Assembly (NCBI GenBank): GCA_903847585.1
Contig: CAINEC010000193.1
Coordinates: 52,507-116,506, forward strand
Length of the DNA: 64,000 nucleotides
Direction: 5' to 3'
From: an uncultured Bacteroidota bacterium
GTDB lineage: Bacteria > Bacteroidota > Bacteroidia > AKYH767-A > OLB10
The first letter of the stretch is position 1. Each line of letters begins with the position of its first letter. The notes beneath the pieces are model-generated. The model had not been told where the DNA came from. It worked only from the letters and a program-made list of their open reading frames with translations, and searched no databases. Position numbers and translations under genes: made by a program. This document shows, piece after piece, positions 2,771 to 13,102 of the stretch.

Positions 2771-3964
2771 ATGAAATCAATTTATCGCTTTATTCAAATA
2801 ACTTTCTGTTTTATAGCCTTTAGTTGCAACAATCCGACAGAAAAGAATTCGCCTACAACACAAACTACTACTGAAACTAAGCAAGATAGTTCATCAGCAC
2901 CAACTGCAGATGTTAAAACGATCAAAGTCAATATTGATTCATCCTACAACAATCTATCTCATTTAATTGCAGGATACCCTATCAACTATTACCAACCGCA
3001 GTGGGACAAAACCTTCATTGATTCGTTTAATAAAAATGTCAATCAGAAAATGGCCTCGATTGAAAACTCTCGCTTATCTAAAATTAAGAGTTGGAATGAA
3101 AACAATATAAAATCAAATGGTGCTAATGACACCAACTTTGTTTTTTATCCATTTTCTGGTGGTGATTTCATTCATATGGCTTGGCTTTATCCGAATGCGA
3201 ACGAGTACTTTATGATTGCGCGTGAATATGTAGGTGATATTCCTAATTTGTTTGCTAAAGACTCAGCTTATACTTCTCAGTATTTGAAAGACATCGAATA
3301 TGTTTTGCGCGATATTTATAACAAGAGTTATTTTATCACCAAAAACATGAGTGCCGATACCAAACACAATACTAAAGTAAATGGTATGCTTCCATTGATT
3401 TTATGGGGAGCAGTTCGAACGGGACACGATATCAGTCAGGTATCATTTGGTAAAATTGATGACGAAGGCAATTTCACCGCGGTAAACAATCATGAAAAAA
3501 GCAATATAGTTCAAGTGATATTGTGGAATAAAAAATTAAATAAACAACAAAAGGTCACTTACTTCTGCTGCGACTTAGCTAACGACGAACTAGTATCACA
3601 TCCTGGGAATATGATATTCATGGAAAAATCTATAGGAGCAAACTGTAATACTTTTATTAAATCTGCCTCTTACCTATTACACTATGGTAGTTTTACTACT
3701 ATCAGAGATTTTGTTCTATCTAAGAGTAATTACCTTGTTCAAGACGACACAGGAATTCCATACAAACATTTTAATAATGAGCAATGGAAAGTAAGTGTTT
3801 TTGGAGTTTACGAAAAACCGGTAAGAGATTTTAGTGATAATTTATATCAGGAAGATTTAGATTCAGCATATAAAACGCCATCCTATCTTGGTGATCTTAA
3901 TTTTTCATTGGGATATCACTGGGGATCCAAAAAGCAGAATCAAATTGTTGCTAAGAAGAACTGA
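2771..3964 (+). CDS. Hypothetical lipoprotein.
   Basis: N-terminal FIAFSC lipobox and a Thr/Ser-rich linker; a conserved-looking FYPFSGGDF motif; no family recognised. Confidence 0.4.
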   Translation: MKSIYRFIQITFCFIAFSCNNPTEKNSPTTQTTTETKQDSSSAPTADVKTIKVNIDSSYNNLSHLIAGYPINYYQPQWDKTFIDSFNKNVNQKMASIENSRLSKIKSWNENNIKSNGANDTNFVFYPFSGGDFIHMAWLYPNANEYFMIAREYVGDIPNLFAKDSAYTSQYLKDIEYVLRDIYNKSYFITKNMSADTKHNTKVNGMLPLILWGAVRTGHDISQVSFGKIDDEGNFTAVNNHEKSNIVQVILWNKKLNKQQKVTYFCCDLANDELVSHPGNMIFMEKSIGANCNTFIKSASYLLHYGSFTTIRDFVLSKSNYLVQDDTGIPYKHFNNEQWKVSVFGVYEKPVRDFSDNLYQEDLDSAYKTPSYLGDLNFSLGYHWGSKKQNQIVAKKN

Positions 3965-3973
3965 AAGAACCAA

Positions 3974-6900
3974 TTAGTATTTGAGTTCTTGTCCTACGTG
4001 AAGCACATTCAATCTTGAATTATTTTTCTTTCTTAGATCTGTGATGGAAATACCGAGTCTTCTACTAATACTATAAGGTGTATCACCTAATTTAACCACA
4101 TAAATACCATGACGCTTTTCCATCATCTCAGAACTCGATAATGTTAAAGAATCTTTTGGAGTAACAACTGGCTTCACAACGTGAGCTGTATCTAATTCTG
4201 TCATACAAGGACAAAGTATTTTCTTTTGACTTTGAGTAAAATCATATCCTGAAAGCGGTTTGTATTCTTTGATTCTTGTCCTCACATTATTATAGCCTTT
4301 GTAATTATTTTCTGTACACAACTCCCAATACTTTAATGCCTGAGTGGAATTGAAATCACAAAACTGCATCAATGATAAAGCAGACAACATACCTGATTGA
4401 TGCCATCCGTTCCAGCAATGTATATAAACCTTCTCCTTCTCGTTATCAATTTTATTGTTAACCCGATTCAATAAATCTGCATAAAACTCCATTAAAAAAG
4501 TATCTGATATTACTGGCCTGCAGTCATAATCTAAACCAATGCTTTTTAACGAATCTATTTTAAACGAATCATAACGTTGTGTAAAATTTTTTGAATAGAG
4601 GTAATAGATTTTATTAAATCCAGCTTCATGTAAATTATCTATTGCATAATAAGGCAAAGGATTTTGAACATAATATTTTGGAATGGAATCTTTCAAATCA
4701 AGATTGTTACCGCCACCTCTATAAAGCAAACCTGGAAATACAGCTCTTACATTGCGTGTACCTAACATAGAGGAATCACCTTTCCCTGAATTATCAATAT
4801 ATCGTTTAAGTACAGAATTCCCTTTATCACAATTCGTTTTAATTGTGTCTACATCGCTTGAATTCTTTACAGCTTTATTATCCACTTGTCCATTACATGA
4901 TGCGGCCATCATGCACAAAAATAATACGATAGGCAAATTCGTGAGTTTATTATTGCGCTTACGAATAAGGAATAACACTATCAAAATAATTAGCAAACCC
5001 GAAATAATTGATATCATATAAATAGTGCTGTTTCCAGACTTTTCTTTATTAACGGATGCGTTAAATTTTAATTGTTTAAGCTTTGATATTGAAATATTCT
5101 TGACCTTAATTTTACCATTCTCCTTTTGAATCAAATAACCTGCATGTAAAATTAACATAGAATCGCTCACAAGATAATGTAAACTATCTATCCATGTATG
5201 ATTTATCGTATCAATAAGATTAAACTGTACATCATTTAAAAAAGAACTTGATTCAAATGCTGGAACTGCTTTCAAATTCTTACTTTGAATATTCGAATTA
5301 AACAAGTTCAAGTTATTAGTAAGAATTATTGAAGAAGATGCAGGGATAACTACATTACTTAAATCAACAGCCAAACCGTTTCGATCTTCATATAACTTTA
5401 CACCCTTTAAAGAAATATCGCTAGTGTGTTTGTTAGCCAACTCAATAAATAGCAACGGCTCTTTCTTCGAATTATTGATATAGTATTTTCTAATCTCTAA
5501 ACTATCTTTTTTAGACGATGCTTTTAGATGACTAAAATTTGCAGTAAGATTTAAATTCGATAACAGCTGAACATTCCTGCTCGATGTTTTTACTCCATCA
5601 CTCCATCCATCAAATTGATATTGATGATTTGAATTCAGAGCAGATAATTCAAAAGGAATACTTCCAAAGAAATAACCATTAATTGCATTCGTATGAACAA
5701 CCGAATTATTTATAGTGAGTCCTTTGAATGAATTATTATTTTGACCAACTGTTAGTCGATAAATCGAATCAATTGAGAAAGTGATTTTCAAATCTTTAAA
5801 TAACGTTGTATCGCGAACAGAAAAATATTGCTTTAGCTCATTAAACTTTTCTGTCCAGGCTTCCATATCCTCGCCATACAAATTTTTTCTGCGATTGAAA
5901 TGACGAGGCAGCTCCCCTTTTATTTTTTCTGCACGTAAATCCAAACTACGACCAAAATAAGACGCATTCAAATAAGTCGCATTCAAGTAACAATACTGCG
6001 TTACAAATCGATTTCGCAGTGTATCATTTTTCAATAAATGTTCAAGTATTGTAGTAGTATAGCTAGGGTTATACCATAGTCGTTCTTTAGGCAAACAACG
6101 ATTCTGAATAAAATTCGATTCAGCAAATGCACATGCTTGATCAGCATCATAAACTACCCATTTCCATTTACCATCCTTATGCTTGTAAAAACGAACATTA
6201 CCACGTGAGTCGATGTTTGTTATATACGTTTCAAATATTTGATAATTGAAATAATTTTCGATGTCGATACTATCTTTTATCAAATTAATAAAATCAGGCT
6301 TATCAGAACTCTCTATGATATAAGAAACTAATGAATTGTATTCAGGACTTTCATCTCCTGAACCTTGCAATTCAATAAAATCACCTTTCTTCCAATCATA
6401 GCGGTATTTAAAATAATCGCCATTAACTTTCTCTCTCAAGTTATGTATTCCGTAATAAATACCATTGACATATAAAATCACCTGACGATAATCTTTCGTA
6501 TTTAAATCAATATCCGCTGCTACCTGACTAATTGCAATATCTTTTATTCGTGTTGCATGTTGATCATTTCCAGAAGTTCGAAGCACTACATGCTGATAAT
6601 CTCTGAAAGGTAAATTCTGGAATAGTTTTACTTTTATCTTACTGCGTTCATATTTATTATCTCTCGCCGATAACTGCAAAGACTTTTCTTTCCAACCTAA
6701 AGTCATACCTCCGTAAGTCTTAACATCAAGCGCTAATTCATCAACCAATTCATTGTAAAAATAAAACTGTGCAAAGCATGATATTGGTTTTTTATCCCAA
6801 GCCTTACCAACTACTTTTGTTTTTGCTTTTTTATTCTTTTTCTTTTCTTCTCGATTAGCAACTTCGCCATAGTAAATTCCTTCTGGTGGAAAAAACTCGA

Positions 6901-7291
6901 TTGAATCGACAATTATTGAAACAATTGGAATCTGATGAGGAGAATTAATAAAATAGGTTCCTAGGTATTTACTATCTTTTCCATTCTCACCCTTCAAAAT
7001 TATTGTTAACGAAGATGTTTCTGTGATTGTAAAATTCAAGCCCGGATACGTTTCTCCTTTTTCATTTGAAACAATTATTCTTGCATTTGATGTATCGATT
7101 CCTGTAATTGAAATTGCAACTGGAGATTTATAAAATCCTGAAAGATGATTTATCTTAAAAGTTGTAGCCTTCTCCAGACTGTAAATCATTAAGGGCTTTT
7201 TAGCTGCCGTATCTTTGACATTGGGAATATCTTGTCCGAATGCAAATTGACAAATTATAACTAAAAGAAGCACGAGTCGTTGTTTCATCAT
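3974..7291 (-). CDS. Composite ORF: signal peptide, CotH-like kinase-fold domain, TM helix, lipobox-like hydrophobic segment, dual-specificity-phosphatase-like domain (HCxxGxxQSG), and a C-terminal LysM. It may be two genes fused in frame.
   Basis: CotH-like core (VLRTSGNDQHATR, YVNGIYYGIHNLREK, NIDSRGNVRFYKHKDGKWKWVVYDAD) is paralogous to 13271..15637. A TM helix plus RKRNNK lies at about 4970..5030, followed by LPIVLFLCMMAASC. VYIHCWNGWHQSGMLSALSLM aligns with the DSP P-loop VxVHCxAGxSRSxT. The C-terminal YVVKLGDTPYSISRRLGISITDLRKKNNSRLNVLHVGQELK is a LysM. Confidence 0.55.
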   Translation of the reverse strand: MMKQRLVLLLVIICQFAFGQDIPNVKDTAAKKPLMIYSLEKATTFKINHLSGFYKSPVAISITGIDTSNARIIVSNEKGETYPGLNFTITETSSLTIILKGENGKDSKYLGTYFINSPHQIPIVSIIVDSIEFFPPEGIYYGEVANREEKKKNKKAKTKVVGKAWDKKPISCFAQFYFYNELVDELALDVKTYGGMTLGWKEKSLQLSARDNKYERSKIKVKLFQNLPFRDYQHVVLRTSGNDQHATRIKDIAISQVAADIDLNTKDYRQVILYVNGIYYGIHNLREKVNGDYFKYRYDWKKGDFIELQGSGDESPEYNSLVSYIIESSDKPDFINLIKDSIDIENYFNYQIFETYITNIDSRGNVRFYKHKDGKWKWVVYDADQACAFAESNFIQNRCLPKERLWYNPSYTTTILEHLLKNDTLRNRFVTQYCYLNATYLNASYFGRSLDLRAEKIKGELPRHFNRRKNLYGEDMEAWTEKFNELKQYFSVRDTTLFKDLKITFSIDSIYRLTVGQNNNSFKGLTINNSVVHTNAINGYFFGSIPFELSALNSNHQYQFDGWSDGVKTSSRNVQLLSNLNLTANFSHLKASSKKDSLEIRKYYINNSKKEPLLFIELANKHTSDISLKGVKLYEDRNGLAVDLSNVVIPASSSIILTNNLNLFNSNIQSKNLKAVPAFESSSFLNDVQFNLIDTINHTWIDSLHYLVSDSMLILHAGYLIQKENGKIKVKNISISKLKQLKFNASVNKEKSGNSTIYMISIISGLLIILIVLFLIRKRNNKLTNLPIVLFLCMMAASCNGQVDNKAVKNSSDVDTIKTNCDKGNSVLKRYIDNSGKGDSSMLGTRNVRAVFPGLLYRGGGNNLDLKDSIPKYYVQNPLPYYAIDNLHEAGFNKIYYLYSKNFTQRYDSFKIDSLKSIGLDYDCRPVISDTFLMEFYADLLNRVNNKIDNEKEKVYIHCWNGWHQSGMLSALSLMQFCDFNSTQALKYWELCTENNYKGYNNVRTRIKEYKPLSGYDFTQSQKKILCPCMTELDTAHVVKPVVTPKDSLTLSSSEMMEKRHGIYVVKLGDTPYSISRRLGISITDLRKKNNSRLNVLHVGQELKY

Positions 7292-7308: not shown

Positions 7309-8328
7309 TTAAATCACTTTGTAACTTAAGATTATTTCAACTTCGGGACCTCTCAATATTCCTATGTGAAGTTCGCCAAGTTTTAATTGCTCCATTGTTT
7401 TTGAAAAAGTGTTTCCAGATTTATTATCGAATAATATTAAATCTTGATTATTAAGCAACACAATGGTATCATTCGACAACTGTTCAATTTCGAAATAAAG
7501 AGTTGAGGCTGCTTTTATTATTTTATTATAAGGAGCGCTATTAATTTTGAAAGATACACTCTCCATATTAAAAACAGTAGGGAGACTAAATTTAGGGTCG
7601 GTTTGTGATTTAATCAGAATACTATCCACATTGAAGCCCATTTGAAAAACAGTACTGGTTTCAAAATACATCATCTTTTTAAATTGTTCACGAGTAACTT
7701 TTTTGGGTAAAAATTGATATTTACTGCTATCTGGAAAATGATTAAACAAAAACTCTTTAGGGTTTACATCAAACCAATAAACGTTATAAATCGATTTTGA
7801 TTTAGCCTTACCATTTATATTCTCAGCATATCCACTACCCCAAGTAGGATCCATTAAATGCCATTGATCATTATACTGGACAGCATTCCAAGCATGATTA
7901 ACTCCAGTGACTGGCATACCTAATTTAAACCCGTATCCTTTGGCAAAACCATCAATCGACACACAAGGAATATTTAATTCATCACATATGGCTTTAAACA
8001 AAAAACTATAACCTGCGCATACCGCTTTACGTGATTTAAAAACTGCTTCCGCACTAGGATCATTAAAAACATGAGAATTGAAGGCATCATCATCATAAGA
8101 GATATGATGAGCCACCCAAGAATAAACTAAGCGTGATTGATAATTTTTATTATTGGTGATTTTCTGAAAGTAATTCGCCAATTTACCAATTGACTCTTCA
8201 TTCTCTACAGGAACATTTTTTCCTAAGCTATCTAATTGAGCATAGCTGTAATTTTGAGCATAGCTTAATTGAAAACTAAAGCACAATAAAATTAAAATTA
8301 TTATTCGCATACTTATTTTCTGATACAT
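7309..8328 (-). CDS. Transglutaminase-like (TGc) cysteine-protease-fold protein, secreted.
   Basis: AVCAGYSFLF ... NHAWNAVQYNDQWHLMDPTWG gives the Cys-His-Asp triad context of the transglutaminase-like superfamily; signal peptide present. Confidence 0.65.
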   Translation of the reverse strand: MYQKISMRIIILILLCFSFQLSYAQNYSYAQLDSLGKNVPVENEESIGKLANYFQKITNNKNYQSRLVYSWVAHHISYDDDAFNSHVFNDPSAEAVFKSRKAVCAGYSFLFKAICDELNIPCVSIDGFAKGYGFKLGMPVTGVNHAWNAVQYNDQWHLMDPTWGSGYAENINGKAKSKSIYNVYWFDVNPKEFLFNHFPDSSKYQFLPKKVTREQFKKMMYFETSTVFQMGFNVDSILIKSQTDPKFSLPTVFNMESVSFKINSAPYNKIIKAASTLYFEIEQLSNDTIVLLNNQDLILFDNKSGNTFSKTMEQLKLGELHIGILRGPEVEIILSYKVI

Positions 8329-9053
8329 CGGATTGAGAACCCATTTTCAAGAACAAAGTTACCAATTCCTTGCTCCATATCAGATTGGCAGTTACCAATA
8401 TAAAGTGCTTTAAGCTCCGTATTCGTAGAGTCAGTAGGTGTATTCACCCAAAAAAAAGAGCAAGCCCCTTCTGCTAAATCCCCATTGAATAAATAACCGC
8501 CTTTATTTGCTCCAAAACCAGATTGATTGTTACTTACTACTTTTCTTGAATAAAGAGATTGCTCCGCCTCATTCCAATCTTCAACACTCCAATCATATTT
8601 CGCCAATTTGGTCATTACCTTTTCTGTAAACTTTTCACGCCCCCCAAGATATGCCGCGAGCATAAGATAGTCATCAGCAATAGGTAACCGATATCCCTTG
8701 GGACATACTGAAACAGAGTCTAGCAATACATAGCCATTGTAAAGCACATCGCCATTTTTCATAACATAACAGCATGGCATCTTACGTTCGTTATACTTAT
8801 TCCAGTCTTTGATCGACTTTACTTTTTTAATCTCTCTGCCATCAGAAAAGGTAGTTGTACTAACGTTATTGGACATCCATACTTGAACACCAATTTTTAC
8901 ATGAGGCACGGAATCCAGTAATTCAACGGAATCGATTTTCGCTACCTTTTCTTGCTTAGGCTCTGTGATTAGCTCCAAATCTTTTTTCTCCACCACATCA
9001 CATGCGCAAAAACACAAGATTAAGAATCCTGACAAACGATAAATTATCTTCAT
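8313..9053 (-). CDS. FISUMP (Fibrobacter succinogenes major paralogous) domain lipoprotein. It overlaps the upstream TGc gene by 16 nt.
   Basis: VQVWMSNN ... CPKGYRLP ... FWVNT ... GFSIRCIRK matches the FISUMP pattern (WMAENL, CPxGWRLP, SVRCV); lipobox LCFCAC. Confidence 0.55.
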   Translation of the reverse strand: MKIIYRLSGFLILCFCACDVVEKKDLELITEPKQEKVAKIDSVELLDSVPHVKIGVQVWMSNNVSTTTFSDGREIKKVKSIKDWNKYNERKMPCCYVMKNGDVLYNGYVLLDSVSVCPKGYRLPIADDYLMLAAYLGGREKFTEKVMTKLAKYDWSVEDWNEAEQSLYSRKVVSNNQSGFGANKGGYLFNGDLAEGACSFFWVNTPTDSTNTELKALYIGNCQSDMEQGIGNFVLENGFSIRCIRK

Positions 9054-9109
9054 TTTAATGAATTAAAAGCCGAGGCGAAAATAGTAAAATCCTGAAACTT
9101 AGCCCTTAT

Positions 9110-10873
9110 TTACTTACGCTTTATATATAACTCGATCTTATGACGTCGTTTGACGTATAGAATACACTCCTTCCCTGCCATTTTAAGCTCATTTTCTCGC
9201 TTTTTAGCTAATTTGAGATTATTAAACACTTCCACTTTCTTATACACTTTCAAATCGATGTTCATCTTAGGATATTTGACTACTGCACTTGTCGTATCTT
9301 TATCCTTGACTGGCTTTTTAACTTCAACAACAACAGGAACAACATCTTCTTCATTTGGAACATTTACAGGATTTGACTCAATCATTCCAAATCGATAGAG
9401 GTTACCATCTCTACAAGCAATATAAATACTCCCATTAAAGCAAACGGGAGTAGACTCAAAATAACCTTTTCGAGTAGCTATCTTTTGAAAACTAGCATTA
9501 GAACCTATTTTATAGATATTAATTGAACCGTATCCAGCCATTACTAATCTATTTTTTGCAAATACAGGAGTTGAAATAGAAGTGCAGACCTTTTCTCTAT
9601 AATGTAATTTCGGACAAGGGTATTTCGTTTCACCATCAGGACCTAATACAAGAGAATCCGATAATTCCTTATAACGAATAACATTAAGATAACCATCAAT
9701 TCCAGTGAATGCTGCAAGGAAAGGATCATTATTATTTCGATAACGATCGTTCACCGCACATGACCCAACAACACCACCAATCCAACTCGAATATTTCTTG
9801 TCTTCAGTAGGATAAAACCATTGTACACATTGATTTGGAGGCAGATTTGGATTCAACTTAAACACTCCACCATGACCTTTGATATATTGCTTTTCAACAG
9901 CAATTAATAAGCAATTATCATCTGTTACGACAGGAGTCCCATCCATATCAGAGCCGATATAAAAATCCCAATCAATAATTTTCTTTTTCAGATTATAACC
10001 AAATACATGTCCGCAACCCGAAGCAATATATAAGTGATCACCAAGTTTGGCAGGTGAAGCCTCGGTTACAAGATTACCACCATGCTGATGTGCATCTTCT
10101 TTCGAATACAGAAGCGTTTTATTATAAACTAACGGCGAGCAATATCCTTTATTTGATTTTACATTTTTTAAGGGATCGAAAGAAACCCAGTATCCATTTT
10201 CTAAACCAATATATCCAGTATCATTCACAAACAAGGCTGATGCATCCACATCATTGCTGTAACACTTCGTTCTTTGCATTGGCATTCTCCAAACTTCTTT
10301 TCCATTAGCACAGTGTAGCGCTCTAAAACTAGTAGCAGCAGAATCTTTTAATGAAACATGAACACCTTTACGACTACCTTGAAAAATATAAAATGGGTTA
10401 CCTTCTGAATGATTATTATTTCTCCAAATTGTACCAGTGCCTTTTAAAATATCTTCGTACTCATATTGCCATACAAGAGAAGCATCTGATAGTTTAATTT
10501 TCTTTAATGTATGATCAAAACTAGCTTGATAAATAAAATATTCACCTTGTTCTTTTGTAATGAGCGGTTGACCTGTCCACCCTGCTCCACTCCATACTTC
10601 TACTCCTGACTGAGCATTTACTATTGTTTCGCCTTTACCAAGTTTATATTTCCAAATTACATTAAGCGAATCAGAGCAAGAATCCCCATAAAATTTTCTC
10701 GTTTCATCACCTAAAAAAGTTCCAATAACAACTTGATAGGGGTCTTCTTTTTTCTTACTTGTAGCAGAATTATTATTCTTTATTTCGGATTGACTACATC
10801 CAAAGATTAGAATTAAACAACCCCAAACAATAATTTTAAAAAAGCTGCGTCTCATTTGATTAATGCGTTGCAA
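9110..10873 (-). CDS. Hypothetical lipoprotein, possibly a beta-propeller.
   Basis: Lipobox IFGCSQ; repeated Gly/Trp/Tyr-rich blades with a PQQ/BamB-like feel; a Lys-rich C-terminal tail; no specific family recognised. Confidence 0.35.
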   Translation of the reverse strand: MQRINQMRRSFFKIIVWGCLILIFGCSQSEIKNNNSATSKKKEDPYQVVIGTFLGDETRKFYGDSCSDSLNVIWKYKLGKGETIVNAQSGVEVWSGAGWTGQPLITKEQGEYFIYQASFDHTLKKIKLSDASLVWQYEYEDILKGTGTIWRNNNHSEGNPFYIFQGSRKGVHVSLKDSAATSFRALHCANGKEVWRMPMQRTKCYSNDVDASALFVNDTGYIGLENGYWVSFDPLKNVKSNKGYCSPLVYNKTLLYSKEDAHQHGGNLVTEASPAKLGDHLYIASGCGHVFGYNLKKKIIDWDFYIGSDMDGTPVVTDDNCLLIAVEKQYIKGHGGVFKLNPNLPPNQCVQWFYPTEDKKYSSWIGGVVGSCAVNDRYRNNNDPFLAAFTGIDGYLNVIRYKELSDSLVLGPDGETKYPCPKLHYREKVCTSISTPVFAKNRLVMAGYGSINIYKIGSNASFQKIATRKGYFESTPVCFNGSIYIACRDGNLYRFGMIESNPVNVPNEEDVVPVVVEVKKPVKDKDTTSAVVKYPKMNIDLKVYKKVEVFNNLKLAKKRENELKMAGKECILYVKRRHKIELYIKRK

Positions 10874-10922: not shown

Positions 10923-11909
10923 ATGAAAAACACAAAACGAGTTACCATCTTAATAACACTTATTTATTTCACGATTAGCTTAACGAGTTCTTTGTATGGT
11001 CAAATTGCAATTACGACAAATCAACTTTTTCAATCTAACAATAAAGTTTTAGTGGCAGCTCACAGAGGTAACTGGAAGGATTTTCCAGAGAATAGTATTC
11101 CCGCAGTACAATCCTGCATAGGTACGGGCATTGACATTATTGAAATAGATGTTCAACGCACGAAAGATGGAGCCTATGTTTTAATGCATGATGGAAGTAT
11201 AGACCGAACAACAAATGGCAAAGGGAAAGTAAGTGATTATACATTAAAACAACTTCAGCGATTTAAACTCAGAGGAAAGGGCGATACCATAACGGAATAT
11301 CGAATTCCGACACTAGACACGATTTGAAAAATCACAAAAGGTAAAATTATTCTCAATATTGATAAGAGCAGTGGTCGCTTCAACGAACTCACAAAACTGA
11401 TAGACTCACTTGAATGTAATCAGCATGTATTATTAAAAGGAAATGGCAAGGGAGAATACTTTAAAAGTTTAAATAATCAGGATACGAATAGCATTTACTA
11501 CATGCCTATTTTAAGCACTAAAAGCAATGTAGATTCTTTTATGCTTAGTTACCAAACACCATTATTTGAATTTCTATTAACTAATGACACCTCCATTTAT
11601 TCGAGTCTTGTGTTTCTAGATTCACTGAAAAAAATGAATGTAAAAATATGGTATAATGCTTTGTTTAATTCCATTTCTGGAGGTCATACAGAAAGTATAG
11701 ATGCAATTAATTCATGGGATTGGTTTATTGGTCATAATGCTTACGTAATACAAACAGATTATCCTTTTCACTTAGTAAAATATTTAAATCAATTAGGACT
11801 TCATGAGAGATTAACGAAAGAAGATCAATATGACTTAACCAAGTTGCCAGTTCGTGAAGCGATTGAAAAAAAAGAATTAATTGATTCCAGCGAAATAAAA
11901 AGTAAGTAA
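10923..11909 (+). pseudogene. Glycerophosphodiester phosphodiesterase (GDPD family) interrupted by one in-frame TGA at 11325..11327. The track splits it into 10923..11327 and 11502..11909.
   Basis: The N-terminal part carries the GDPD signature AAHRGNWKDFPENSIPAVQSCIGTGIDIIEIDVQRTKDGAYVLMHDGSIDRTTNGKG. The same frame continues stop-free after the TGA as KITKGKIILNIDKS... to the end of the domain. Confidence 0.6.
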
Positions 11910-11998: not shown

Positions 11999-13102
11999 CT
12001 AATTCGCTTTTTTCTTGAATCCGAGATGCGTATAAACTGCTCTTTCACCTCCATCACTTGGACGATTAATCACACCGAGTTGCTTTGAATACATTAAGCT
12101 ACTACCACCCTGATCGCAGGCCATTGCATTATACACACCAACCTTTTTAAATACTTCAACAGCTTGTGTCATTGTAACACCAATACTATATAACGGCTTT
12201 CGTCCATCAACCACCATCATAAAAATACGGTTACCATCTTTATTCAACCCAATTAGCGTACGAGGAAAAAAATGATCTGCTGTATAATCATGTTTTGATA
12301 TTGCACTTTCCCCATTCATCATCATATCAAACCTCCCCCAAATGGCATTGTGCATTTGTTCTGAGGGCTTCTTTACTACATCTTCTTCTTTTGAATAATA
12401 AACTTGATTGTTGCTATCAAAATAAATAAAAGGACGATACCTCGTATCCTCCAACATGATGGGGTTACCGTTAACAATAAAATTTCCAATCCAACTGCCA
12501 AGTGGTGCTTCACGCGCAGGCGCTGTTCCTGCCTCACCATTAACTGCTATATCCCAATTATTCTTTTTAGCCACTTTAGCTGTACGCAGTTTAACAGACA
12601 TCGCAGTATCTAATCCAACATTGTATTTGGTCAAATCAACTGTAGCAAGAAACACGACGTTAAGCGGTTCAGCCATGTTAATTTTAATGATCTCAAGTCC
12701 TTCTTCTGCTTGTAAAAAATCAACAGATTGAACTTTGCCAAAAGACAATTTCTTTAATTCTTCAAAATACTGTTCCAAATAAGATCTTTTATTACCACTA
12801 TCTTTTACAACTACAATTTGCTTTTTTGTTTTAGCATCTATTTCTATGTTATGTAGTTGATAATCGCCGATTGCTATTGCACCAATGATTAAAAAGAAGA
12901 TAGTAGAAGATGTATATGCATAAATTTTTACTGCTGGTTGAATAGAGGTTTTCTTGAAAGCACCTAAAATAAAAAAAGTAAAAAGCCAAAAAACGGAGGA
13001 GCAAAATATCCAAAGTAACCCTTGAAAGGCCAAGGGTAATTCAAAAACCCTAAGTAGAACCATCCACAAATCATCAATTAAAATATTTACAAAATCACCC
13101 AT
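11999..13102 (-). CDS. Phosphodiester glycosidase family protein (NAGPA/DUF2233-like) with N-terminal TM helices.
   Basis: FFPRTLIGLNKDGNRIFMMVVDGRKPLYSIGVTMTQAVEVFKKVGVYNAMACDQGGSSLMY matches the phosphodiester glycosidase core (RTAIG, VVDGR, LDGGGSS). Confidence 0.6.
   Translation of the reverse strand: MGDFVNILIDDLWMVLLRVFELPLAFQGLLWIFCSSVFWLFTFFILGAFKKTSIQPAVKIYAYTSSTIFFLIIGAIAIGDYQLHNIEIDAKTKKQIVVVKDSGNKRSYLEQYFEELKKLSFGKVQSVDFLQAEEGLEIIKINMAEPLNVVFLATVDLTKYNVGLDTAMSVKLRTAKVAKKNNWDIAVNGEAGTAPAREAPLGSWIGNFIVNGNPIMLEDTRYRPFIYFDSNNQVYYSKEEDVVKKPSEQMHNAIWGRFDMMMNGESAISKHDYTADHFFPRTLIGLNKDGNRIFMMVVDGRKPLYSIGVTMTQAVEVFKKVGVYNAMACDQGGSSLMYSKQLGVINRPSDGGERAVYTHLGFKKKAN

Follow-up and report, generated by a model that had tools for sequence, protein, structure and literature searches.

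Can the scaffold of a cysteine phosphatase persist in a family of proteins once the arginine of its phosphate-binding loop has gone? The question is raised by a minus-strand open reading frame of 1105 amino acids at positions 3974..7291 of a 64,000-nucleotide stretch of contig CAINEC010000193.1, from an uncultured Bacteroidota bacterium, which we refer to throughout as the window. The original prediction, made from the sequence alone, was that positions 4380-4430 encode a P-loop like that of a dual-specificity phosphatase (DSP), HCWNGWHQSG, in which the Arg six residues after the catalytic Cys (position C+6) is replaced by Gln. The Arg of the CX5R signature is held to be indispensable in cysteine phosphatases, and proteins that lack it are routinely dismissed as dead. 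The motif belongs to VYIHCWNGWHQSGMLSALSLM, residues 955-975 of the reading frame, and the analysis described here places it in an exported, previously undescribed and well-delimited branch of the cysteine-phosphatase superfamily, Pfam clan CL0031, in which the scaffold has been kept and the C-x5-R signature has failed.

The fold was examined by modelling residues 815-1050 in AlphaFold2 with an alignment of 49 homologues; the model has a mean predicted local distance difference test (pLDDT) score of 91.7 and a predicted template modelling (pTM) score of 0.89. In the model a strand (model residues 140-145) stops at Cys959, model residue 145, and a helix (151-163) begins at Gln965. A Foldseek comparison of the model with the Protein Data Bank (PDB) gave best 50 listed matches that were all cysteine phosphatases, with a probability of 1.00 and template modelling (TM) scores of 0.6-0.72 when normalised by target length. 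The matches include the capping-enzyme RNA triphosphatase (1i9t, ranked first), AtPFA-DSP1, Cdc14, PIR1/DUSP11, PRL and Siw14, and AtPFA-DSP1 entries are the commonest among the best 50. At the sequence level 33 of the 34 PDB sequences matched by the family profile are DSPs, each of them weakly matched (E ~0.1), and in the alignments shown iHCWNGWHqsG lies on IHCHAGVSRSA and on vyvHCkaGrsRS with Gln over the signature Arg. An hhalign comparison with an AtPFA-DSP1 sequence that is 100% identical to chain 7mok_A gave a probability of 88% and an E-value of 3e-6, with IHCWNGWHQSG paired with IHCKRGKHRTG.

Family libraries gave weaker signals. Residues 938-988 of the window protein score 16 bits against Pfam DSPc and 13.6 bits against Y_phosphatase, both below threshold, and over the members scanned DSPc (PF00782) reaches 16-18 bits against a Pfam cutoff of 33.5 and Y_phosphatase (PF00102) 13.6-15.3 bits against 20.9. 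For Y_phosphatase2 (PF03162) there were weak matches only, in 14 of 49 members with a best E-value of 0.0022. A rhodanese/Cdc25 fold was considered and rejected, its only sign being a weak sequence match to 6mxv (E 0.018), and the best 50 Foldseek matches are all structures of protein-tyrosine phosphatases (PTPs) and DSPs. On the predicted structure, HCWNGWHQSG is a P-loop within a cysteine-phosphatase (PTP/DSP) fold. The original prediction was therefore right about the site itself. The coordinates are correct, HCWNGWHQSG lying at 4391-4420 and the longer string quoted with it at 4367-4429; the register of the motif matches the cysteine-phosphatase signature in the profile alignments to PDB sequences, in hhalign and in the modelled secondary structure; and Gln occupies the C+6 position in both kinds of alignment. 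The prediction had named two outcomes that would count against a real cysteine-phosphatase fold, a profile alignment outside any such fold and a predicted structure with no P-loop cradle, but the profile alignment falls inside the fold and a strand-loop-helix P-loop is predicted.

How far the loop is shared was determined in two rounds of searching. A word-indexed search gave 78 homologues; 1.84 billion cluster representatives were then searched exhaustively with a profile (E<=0.001), which gave a family of 369 clusters at 50% identity. In a scan of one genome per species, relatives are encoded in 384 species genomes. HCWNGWH is invariant in 78/78 of the first-round homologues, where C+6 is Q, M or A. 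Among the best 150 of the 369 cluster representatives there are 142 new sequences, and the loop motif is readable in 124 of these, with C+6 being Ala in 90, Gln in 24, Ser in 4, Met in 3 and Pro, Asn or Thr in 1 each, and never Arg or Lys. Among those of the 220 retrieved members that have a readable loop, Arg at C+6 is found in none and Lys in two, both of which also lack the Cys. With HCWNGWH or close variants of it in these sequences and relatives in hundreds of genomes, the motif goes far beyond chance.

Conservation over 127 domains from representative proteins is highest in this loop: His958 98%, Cys959 97%, Trp960 91%, Asn961 91%, Gly962 100%, His964 98% and Gly967 95%, with Ser966 at 87% and a further 6% Thr. 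The His at C-1 and the Ser/Thr at C+7, which tune the thiolate in the superfamily, are thus both retained, and the free Cys is conserved though the proteins are exported. Further conserved positions are Arg/Lys846 (92%), Arg/Lys849 (95%), Tyr857-Arg858 (Arg858 94%), Tyr897, Tyr899, Tyr922, Gln976-Phe-Cys978 and Tyr988-Trp989. Cys978 (100%) and Cys1027 (98%) probably form a disulfide. Residue 994, 35 residues past the Cys, is Glu in the window protein and Asp in more than 90% of a 26-sequence alignment (A2). No invariant Asp or Glu that could serve as a general acid of the WPD or D-loop kind was found between the first strands and the P-loop in the family alignments. One member of 528 residues (P0079) has two stretches that match the family profile, suggesting a tandem duplication of the domain.

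In the source databases members are annotated as 'hypothetical' or 'LysM', and now and then as 'protein-tyrosine phosphatase', and in library scans no Pfam or NCBIfam model covers the PTP-like domain. Full-text searching of the literature found no account of the family, of a pairing between CotH and a phosphatase, of a link between CotH and NAGPA, or of bacterial PTPs without the Arg.

In the window protein the domain is one part of a longer chain, which is laid out as follows.

3974..7291, minus strand: the 1105-residue gene, in the order signal peptide, CotH, LTD-like domain, transmembrane hairpin, PTP-like domain and LysM (open reading frame list and Pfam scan)
7232..7291, minus strand: N-terminal signal peptide, residues 1-20 (MMKQRLVLLLVIICQFAFGQ), read from the sequence and predicting export
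5807..6715, minus strand: CotH kinase-fold domain, residues 193-495 (Pfam PF08757, E 9.6e-31, 107.9 bits against a cutoff of 23.8)
5183..5518, minus strand: lamin-tail-like (LTD) domain, residues 592-703 (Pfam PF00932, E 5e-6, 27.3 bits, under the cutoff of 34.3)
4964..5023, minus strand: transmembrane segment, residues 757-776, followed by the basic stretch RKRNNK (hydropathy scan)
4895..4936, minus strand: second hydrophobic segment, residues 786-799, with a lipobox-like AASC at its end (read from the sequence)
4187..4804, minus strand: PTP/DSP-fold domain without the P-loop Arg, residues ~830-1035 (AlphaFold2 model, Foldseek)
4391..4420, minus strand: the P-loop, His958-Cys959-Trp-Asn-Gly-Trp-His964-Gln965-Ser966-Gly967 (HCWNGWHQSG), residues 958-967
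3980..4102, minus strand: LysM peptidoglycan-binding domain, residues 1064-1104 (Pfam PF01476, E 3.8e-9, 36.8 bits against a cutoff of 20.9)

The closest relatives are found in two Bacteroidota metagenome-assembled genomes (loci L005 and L006), with fused reading frames that are also 1105 residues long and PTP-like regions that are 97% and 94% identical. The linker was read in seven fused homologues, and 7/7 have the transmembrane segment and the basic stretch together with a hydrophobic segment that closes in a signal-peptidase-like site such as SIAQ, SAQN, AFAQP or ASSC. Unfused homologues begin with ordinary signal peptides, and signal peptides or lipoboxes are visible among the homologues. 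Read in this way, the hydrophobic segment of residues 786-799 probably descends, as a relic, from the signal peptide of a PTP-like protein that was once separate, and since the fusion linker keeps this layout of transmembrane segment and relic signal, both CotH and the PTP-like domain would face the periplasm. The fusion junction itself (residues 757-799; window 4895-5023; loci L005-L013) may be a membrane hairpin or a point of cleavage into two polypeptides after export.

With the family and the gene layout in hand, other parts of the original prediction need to be reworded. It placed the site between CotH and LysM; one reading frame does carry both, but CotH is not directly adjacent, as the LTD-like domain and the two hydrophobic segments intervene. 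It treated the change from Arg to Gln as local to one protein, whereas the absence of Arg is family-wide and C+6 is variable, so that Gln is unlikely to be a specific functional substitute; on the sequences, the Q-to-R 'back-mutation' that it proposed has no evolutionary basis inside the family. It took the generic DSP signature as the nearest loop, and the PFA-DSP/Siw14 loop HCKRGKHRTG is closer. It offered three readings of the Arg-less loop (a pseudophosphatase, a module binding phospho-substrates, or an altered chemistry), of which plain pseudophosphatase decay fits worst, the loop being the most conserved part of the domain and keeping its thiolate-tuning residues.

Members of the family are mainly from Bacteroidota (Flavobacteriales, Crocinitomicaceae and Chitinophagaceae), with some from Ignavibacteria/Kapabacteria and Bdellovibrio. 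In Bacteroidota the PTP-like domain is accompanied by a LysM, and a secreted protein with the CotH kinase fold is either fused to it or encoded next to it. We counted CotH neighbours over 82 distinct loci using a hidden Markov model of the CotH core only, and found CotH linked to the PTP-like domain in 48 of them, fused in 18, immediately upstream in 17 and immediately downstream in 13, the last often with stop and start codons that overlap. The gaps between the two genes are 0, -4 or about 800 bp. That the two are found fused, and also side by side in either gene order, is a strong sign that CotH and the PTP-like domain are functionally coupled, and the position of the domain beside a secreted CotH-type kinase suggests a phosphorylation-related system at the cell wall. 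C+6 is Gln or Met in all of the CotH-linked copies. In one locus (L001) an LTD is also present on a separate CotH partner.

The partner CotH domains have invariant Asp361, Asn365 and Asp382-x-Asp384 (alignment A3). In Bacillus subtilis CotH, D228 and D251 are the sites of catalytic mutants (PMC7821199). The spacing of 23 between D361 and D384 equals that between D228 and D251, and this spacing makes Asp361, with Asn365, a candidate for the catalytic site. Against the solved CotH of Bacillus cereus, neither a single sequence nor a profile of the domain produced an alignment.

Loci without CotH consist of a clade of 381-residue LysM proteins in a constant but unrelated context, of forms of ~240 residues without LysM, and of a few copies cut off by the end of a contig. 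The short forms occur in Ignavibacteria and Bdellovibrio, and the ancestral form was probably a small exported stand-alone protein, to which LysM and the CotH partnership were added in Bacteroidota. Nine neighbours in CotH-less loci (of the 381-residue Flavobacteriales clade, Ignavibacteria and Bdellovibrio) contain no kinase or phosphate-related Pfam family; they gave TPR, weak DnaB_C-like, DUF2279 or no family, and others looked housekeeping-like by eye. A secreted 450-residue neighbour in Bdellovibrio bacteriovorus CP168971.1 (locus L079, 5241-6590, minus strand) contains 'LLNQQDRIGNIHY' ('QQDRIGN'), which resembles a kinase catalytic loop by eye; the protein has no Pfam match and was dropped as a candidate. 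In another locus (L085, 2958-5261, minus strand) a 767-residue protein with a Pkinase domain lies ~740 bp upstream of the stand-alone Ala-type member P0071, on the opposite strand and with BioY between them, which may be coincidence.

Around the CotH/PTP-like gene, the window contains further genes that relate to phosphodiesters and to the envelope.

11999..13102, minus strand: NAGPA-type phosphodiester glycosidase (Pfam PF09992, E 5e-23)
10923..11909, plus strand: GDPD glycerophosphodiester phosphodiesterase with one in-frame TGA at 11325-11327 (Pfam PF03009, translation)
2771..3964, plus strand: 397-residue lipoprotein-like protein (unk397) of no Pfam family, recurring near the pair in 12 loci
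1373-2571 and 7309-10873, minus strand: envelope-related flanks, comprising VanY D-Ala-D-Ala carboxypeptidase, SH3_3, transglutaminase-like, Fib_succ_major and PQQ-like beta-propeller

Both NAGPA and GDPD are within 6 kb of the CotH/PTP-like gene in the window. Elsewhere NAGPA follows immediately downstream of that gene, within a few bases, in seven loci (L018, L035, L040, L041, L045, L046 and L047), and GDPD is the next gene after NAGPA in all of these except L045, in which the contig ends after NAGPA. Homologues of GDPD are present in 8 loci altogether. The recurring order of NAGPA and GDPD hints at a conserved phosphodiester-handling cluster. The GDPD frame in the window is clean on both sides of the TGA; the gene could be a pseudogene, the TGA could be an error of sequencing, or the stop could be recoded. 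The unk397 family is large (1839 matches) and has an invariant FYPFSGGD motif; its AlphaFold model (pLDDT 83) gave weak Rossmann or methyltransferase-like matches only (E ~1e-3, TM ~0.3), which are uninterpretable.

What the domain does can be approached from these features. The explanation that we prefer, as a tentative one, is that it would be a live thiol enzyme on peptidoglycan, working with CotH on a low-charge phospho-substrate. The protein would be exported; its transmembrane hairpin would place both the CotH and the PTP-like domain at the outer surface of the inner membrane, and its LysM would anchor the latter to peptidoglycan. The P-loop's backbone amides and the helix dipole would still hold the phosphoryl group, Cys959 would attack it, and His964, teamed with acidic residue 994, which is near-invariant, would activate water in the manner of His155 and Asp191 of AtPFA-DSP1. 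A low-charge substrate is to be expected, given that the loop has lost its guanidinium and its lysines, has a small or neutral residue at C+6 and carries two Trp at the rim, and one with a good leaving group because the nearest structural relatives cleave such substrates without a general acid. It would then be a sugar- or lipid-linked phosphate, within a glycopolymer of the cell wall or on a lipid carrier, the linkage being of the phosphodiester, sugar-1-phosphate or pyrophosphate kind, and would not be the dianion of a phosphoprotein. The PTP-like domain may process or reverse the product of its CotH partner, beside the NAGPA and GDPD phosphodiesterases.

Extended to the whole locus, this would amount to an extracytoplasmic two-component system of Bacteroidota for phosphoryl modification of the cell wall, in which a secreted CotH 'writer' and an Arg-independent (or Cys-His-Asp) enzyme of the PTP fold, whose P-loop is uncharged and lined by Trp, are both tethered to peptidoglycan by LysM and act with NAGPA and GDPD on phosphodiester-linked glycopolymers; in this complete form we regard the proposal as speculative and rather unlikely. 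The targets of such a system could be the envelope of the cell itself or foreign and prey envelopes, in view of the stand-alone form in Bdellovibrio.

A number of observations weigh against a live enzyme that works with CotH. In classical PTPs (Yersinia PTP, PTP1B) the loss of the P-loop Arg costs a factor of 10^3-10^4 in kcat, and we know of no supply of adenosine triphosphate (ATP) in the periplasm, which weakens every model that has CotH as a kinase. The nucleophilic Cys is itself lost in four representatives (P0143, P0156, P0212 and P0150), three times to Asp (with the loops HDYNGWHESG, HDWNGWEKVG and YDWDGRKETS) and once to Gly (HGWNGWQRPP). As for genomic context, 34 of the 82 loci have no CotH within about 7 kb, only some 10% of loci show the link to NAGPA and GDPD, and both of the Ala-type members that were examined stand alone. 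Two of the Cys-less members (P0150 and P0156) are proteins of ~700 residues with OmpA-like and LysM-like sequence at the C-terminus by eye.

Several of these points would suit a non-catalytic pseudophosphatase that binds a phospho- or glycan ligand or CotH itself, and that targets or regulates CotH, as its subunit, on peptidoglycan. The Arg, key both to phosphate binding and to stabilising the transition state, is absent in every readable loop; there is no invariant general-acid Asp upstream of the loop; the tight fusion or adjacency to CotH suits a regulatory subunit; and the few Cys-less members persist in genomes. However, the loops of pseudophosphatases normally decay, and here the loop is the best-conserved segment with the Cys kept at 97% in an oxidising compartment. 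An Arg-less pocket would also read phosphate poorly, and the stand-alone forms of ~240 residues, with neither CotH nor LysM, point to an independent function for the domain. The missing general acid is not decisive either, as PFA-DSP and RNA triphosphatases are active without one (PMC9038691). Taken together, a purely non-catalytic role seems unlikely, while being the most credible of the alternatives. A changed chemistry, in which a triad of Cys959, His964 and acidic residue 994 with an amide oxyanion hole carries out an acyl or thioester reaction (as an amidase, esterase or transferase) on peptidoglycan or an uncharged glycan, would account for a loop that has been stripped of all charge and has two Trp and an Asn at its rim, as is typical for sugar-binding sites. 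It would also draw on the His-Asp pair beside the Cys, inherited from PFA-DSP, on the LysM tether, and on cell-wall neighbours such as VanY, SH3_3 and the transglutaminase-like protein in the window and the SLT and SPOR genes that neighbour the pair in L001. We consider it improbable nonetheless: we know of no acyl hydrolase with the PTP fold, the recurrent partners (CotH, NAGPA and GDPD) handle phosphate, and the loop retains the exact length of a phosphate cradle, C-x5-x-S/T.

More doubtful still is a phosphocysteine carrier, in which Cys959 would take a phosphoryl group from CotH or a lipid pyrophosphate and hand it to a glycan, the Arg-less loop slowing hydrolysis. The IIB-cellobiose protein of the phosphotransferase system has a PTP-like loop that is also without Arg, and thiolate-tuning residues conserved without the hydrolysis-promoting Arg, together with an obligate proximity to a kinase fold that includes fusions, are as such a carrier would have them. 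This case is nevertheless pure analogy; IIB-cellobiose differs in topology, being like the low-molecular-weight PTPs, and the His at C+5 and the acidic residue, which activate water in PFA-DSP, are retained here, which favours hydrolysis. A chance resemblance or a mis-called reading frame, with the motif outside any phosphatase-like domain, could be argued from the sub-threshold DSPc and Y_phosphatase scores; it is refuted by the confident PTP-fold model, by the hhalign result and by the 384 genomes that encode the domain, and its likelihood is practically negligible.

Whichever of these applies, the family provides a concrete handle on the role of CotH in non-sporulating bacteria. If the preferred reading of a live enzyme is right, the PTP scaffold works without its Arg or has been redirected to other chemistry, and this would also point to phosphoryl-group traffic outside the bacterial inner membrane, where no ATP-dependent pair of kinase and phosphatase is established. 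If the domain has no activity, bacteria would have in it a pseudophosphatase that is dedicated, as a subunit, to an atypical kinase, for which we know of no precedent.

Among known proteins the nearest to the family are the PFA-DSP/Siw14 phosphatases (Y_phosphatase2; AtPFA-DSP1, 7MOK/1XRI), which have the same fold with Foldseek TM scores of up to 0.72. The two groups have in common the pattern H-C-x-x-G-x-H-x-[ST]-G in one register, an N-terminal N-x-x-x-V...[YF]-R-[SG]-G in our own sequence comparison, the lack of a WPD-type general acid, and an acidic residue 35-41 positions past the Cys, at the place of Asp191. In AtPFA-DSP1 the loop reads Cys150-Lys-Arg-Gly-Lys-His155-Arg156-Thr157, and its four basic side chains, two of Lys and two of Arg, bind the polyphosphate substrate (PMC9038691). 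His155 is the catalytic base and is held by Asp191, and mutation of these residues loses 90-98% of the activity (95-98% for His155), in an enzyme without a WPD general acid (PMC9038691). In the family W, N, W and Q/A/M stand in place of K151, R152, K154 and R156, so that the strongly basic polyphosphate pocket of HC[KT]RGKHRTG is not encountered, and the backdoor Cys92 of AtPFA-DSP1, which can bond with Cys150, aligns with the invariant Tyr899. In contrast to the cytosolic PFA-DSP proteins, the family is exported and has extra C-terminal helices that are pinned by the conserved Cys pair.

The RNA 5'-triphosphatases (mouse 1I9T, baculovirus BVP 1YN9 and PIR1/DUSP11) also use a PTP fold to cleave phosphoanhydrides without a general acid, but their P-loop still has its Arg and their pocket is basic, and they are intracellular and have no LysM or CotH context. 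The glucan phosphatases laforin, SEX4 and LSF2, of which LSF2 (PDB 4KYQ) is among both the sequence and the fold matches, tether a DSP fold by a glycan-binding module much as LysM does here. They differ in keeping CX5R and in acting on phosphate monoesters of starch or glycogen, whereas the family has a LysM tether and no Arg. Pseudophosphatases such as STYX and the inactive myotubularins resemble the family in deviating from CX5R within a PTP fold. Proteins of the STYX type lose the Cys and keep the Arg, and the family is the opposite, with the Cys kept, the Arg absent and the loop very strongly conserved.

For the partner domain the comparison is with Bacillus CotH, whose substrates are CotB and CotG and of whose family it is a clear member. 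Bacillus CotH works on Ser-rich proteins of the coat inside the mother cell, and the literature retrieved describes no phosphatase-like partner for it (PMC7821199). What sets the protein described here apart from Bacillus CotH is its signal peptide, LTD-like domain and transmembrane anchor, and its occurrence in non-sporulating Bacteroidota.

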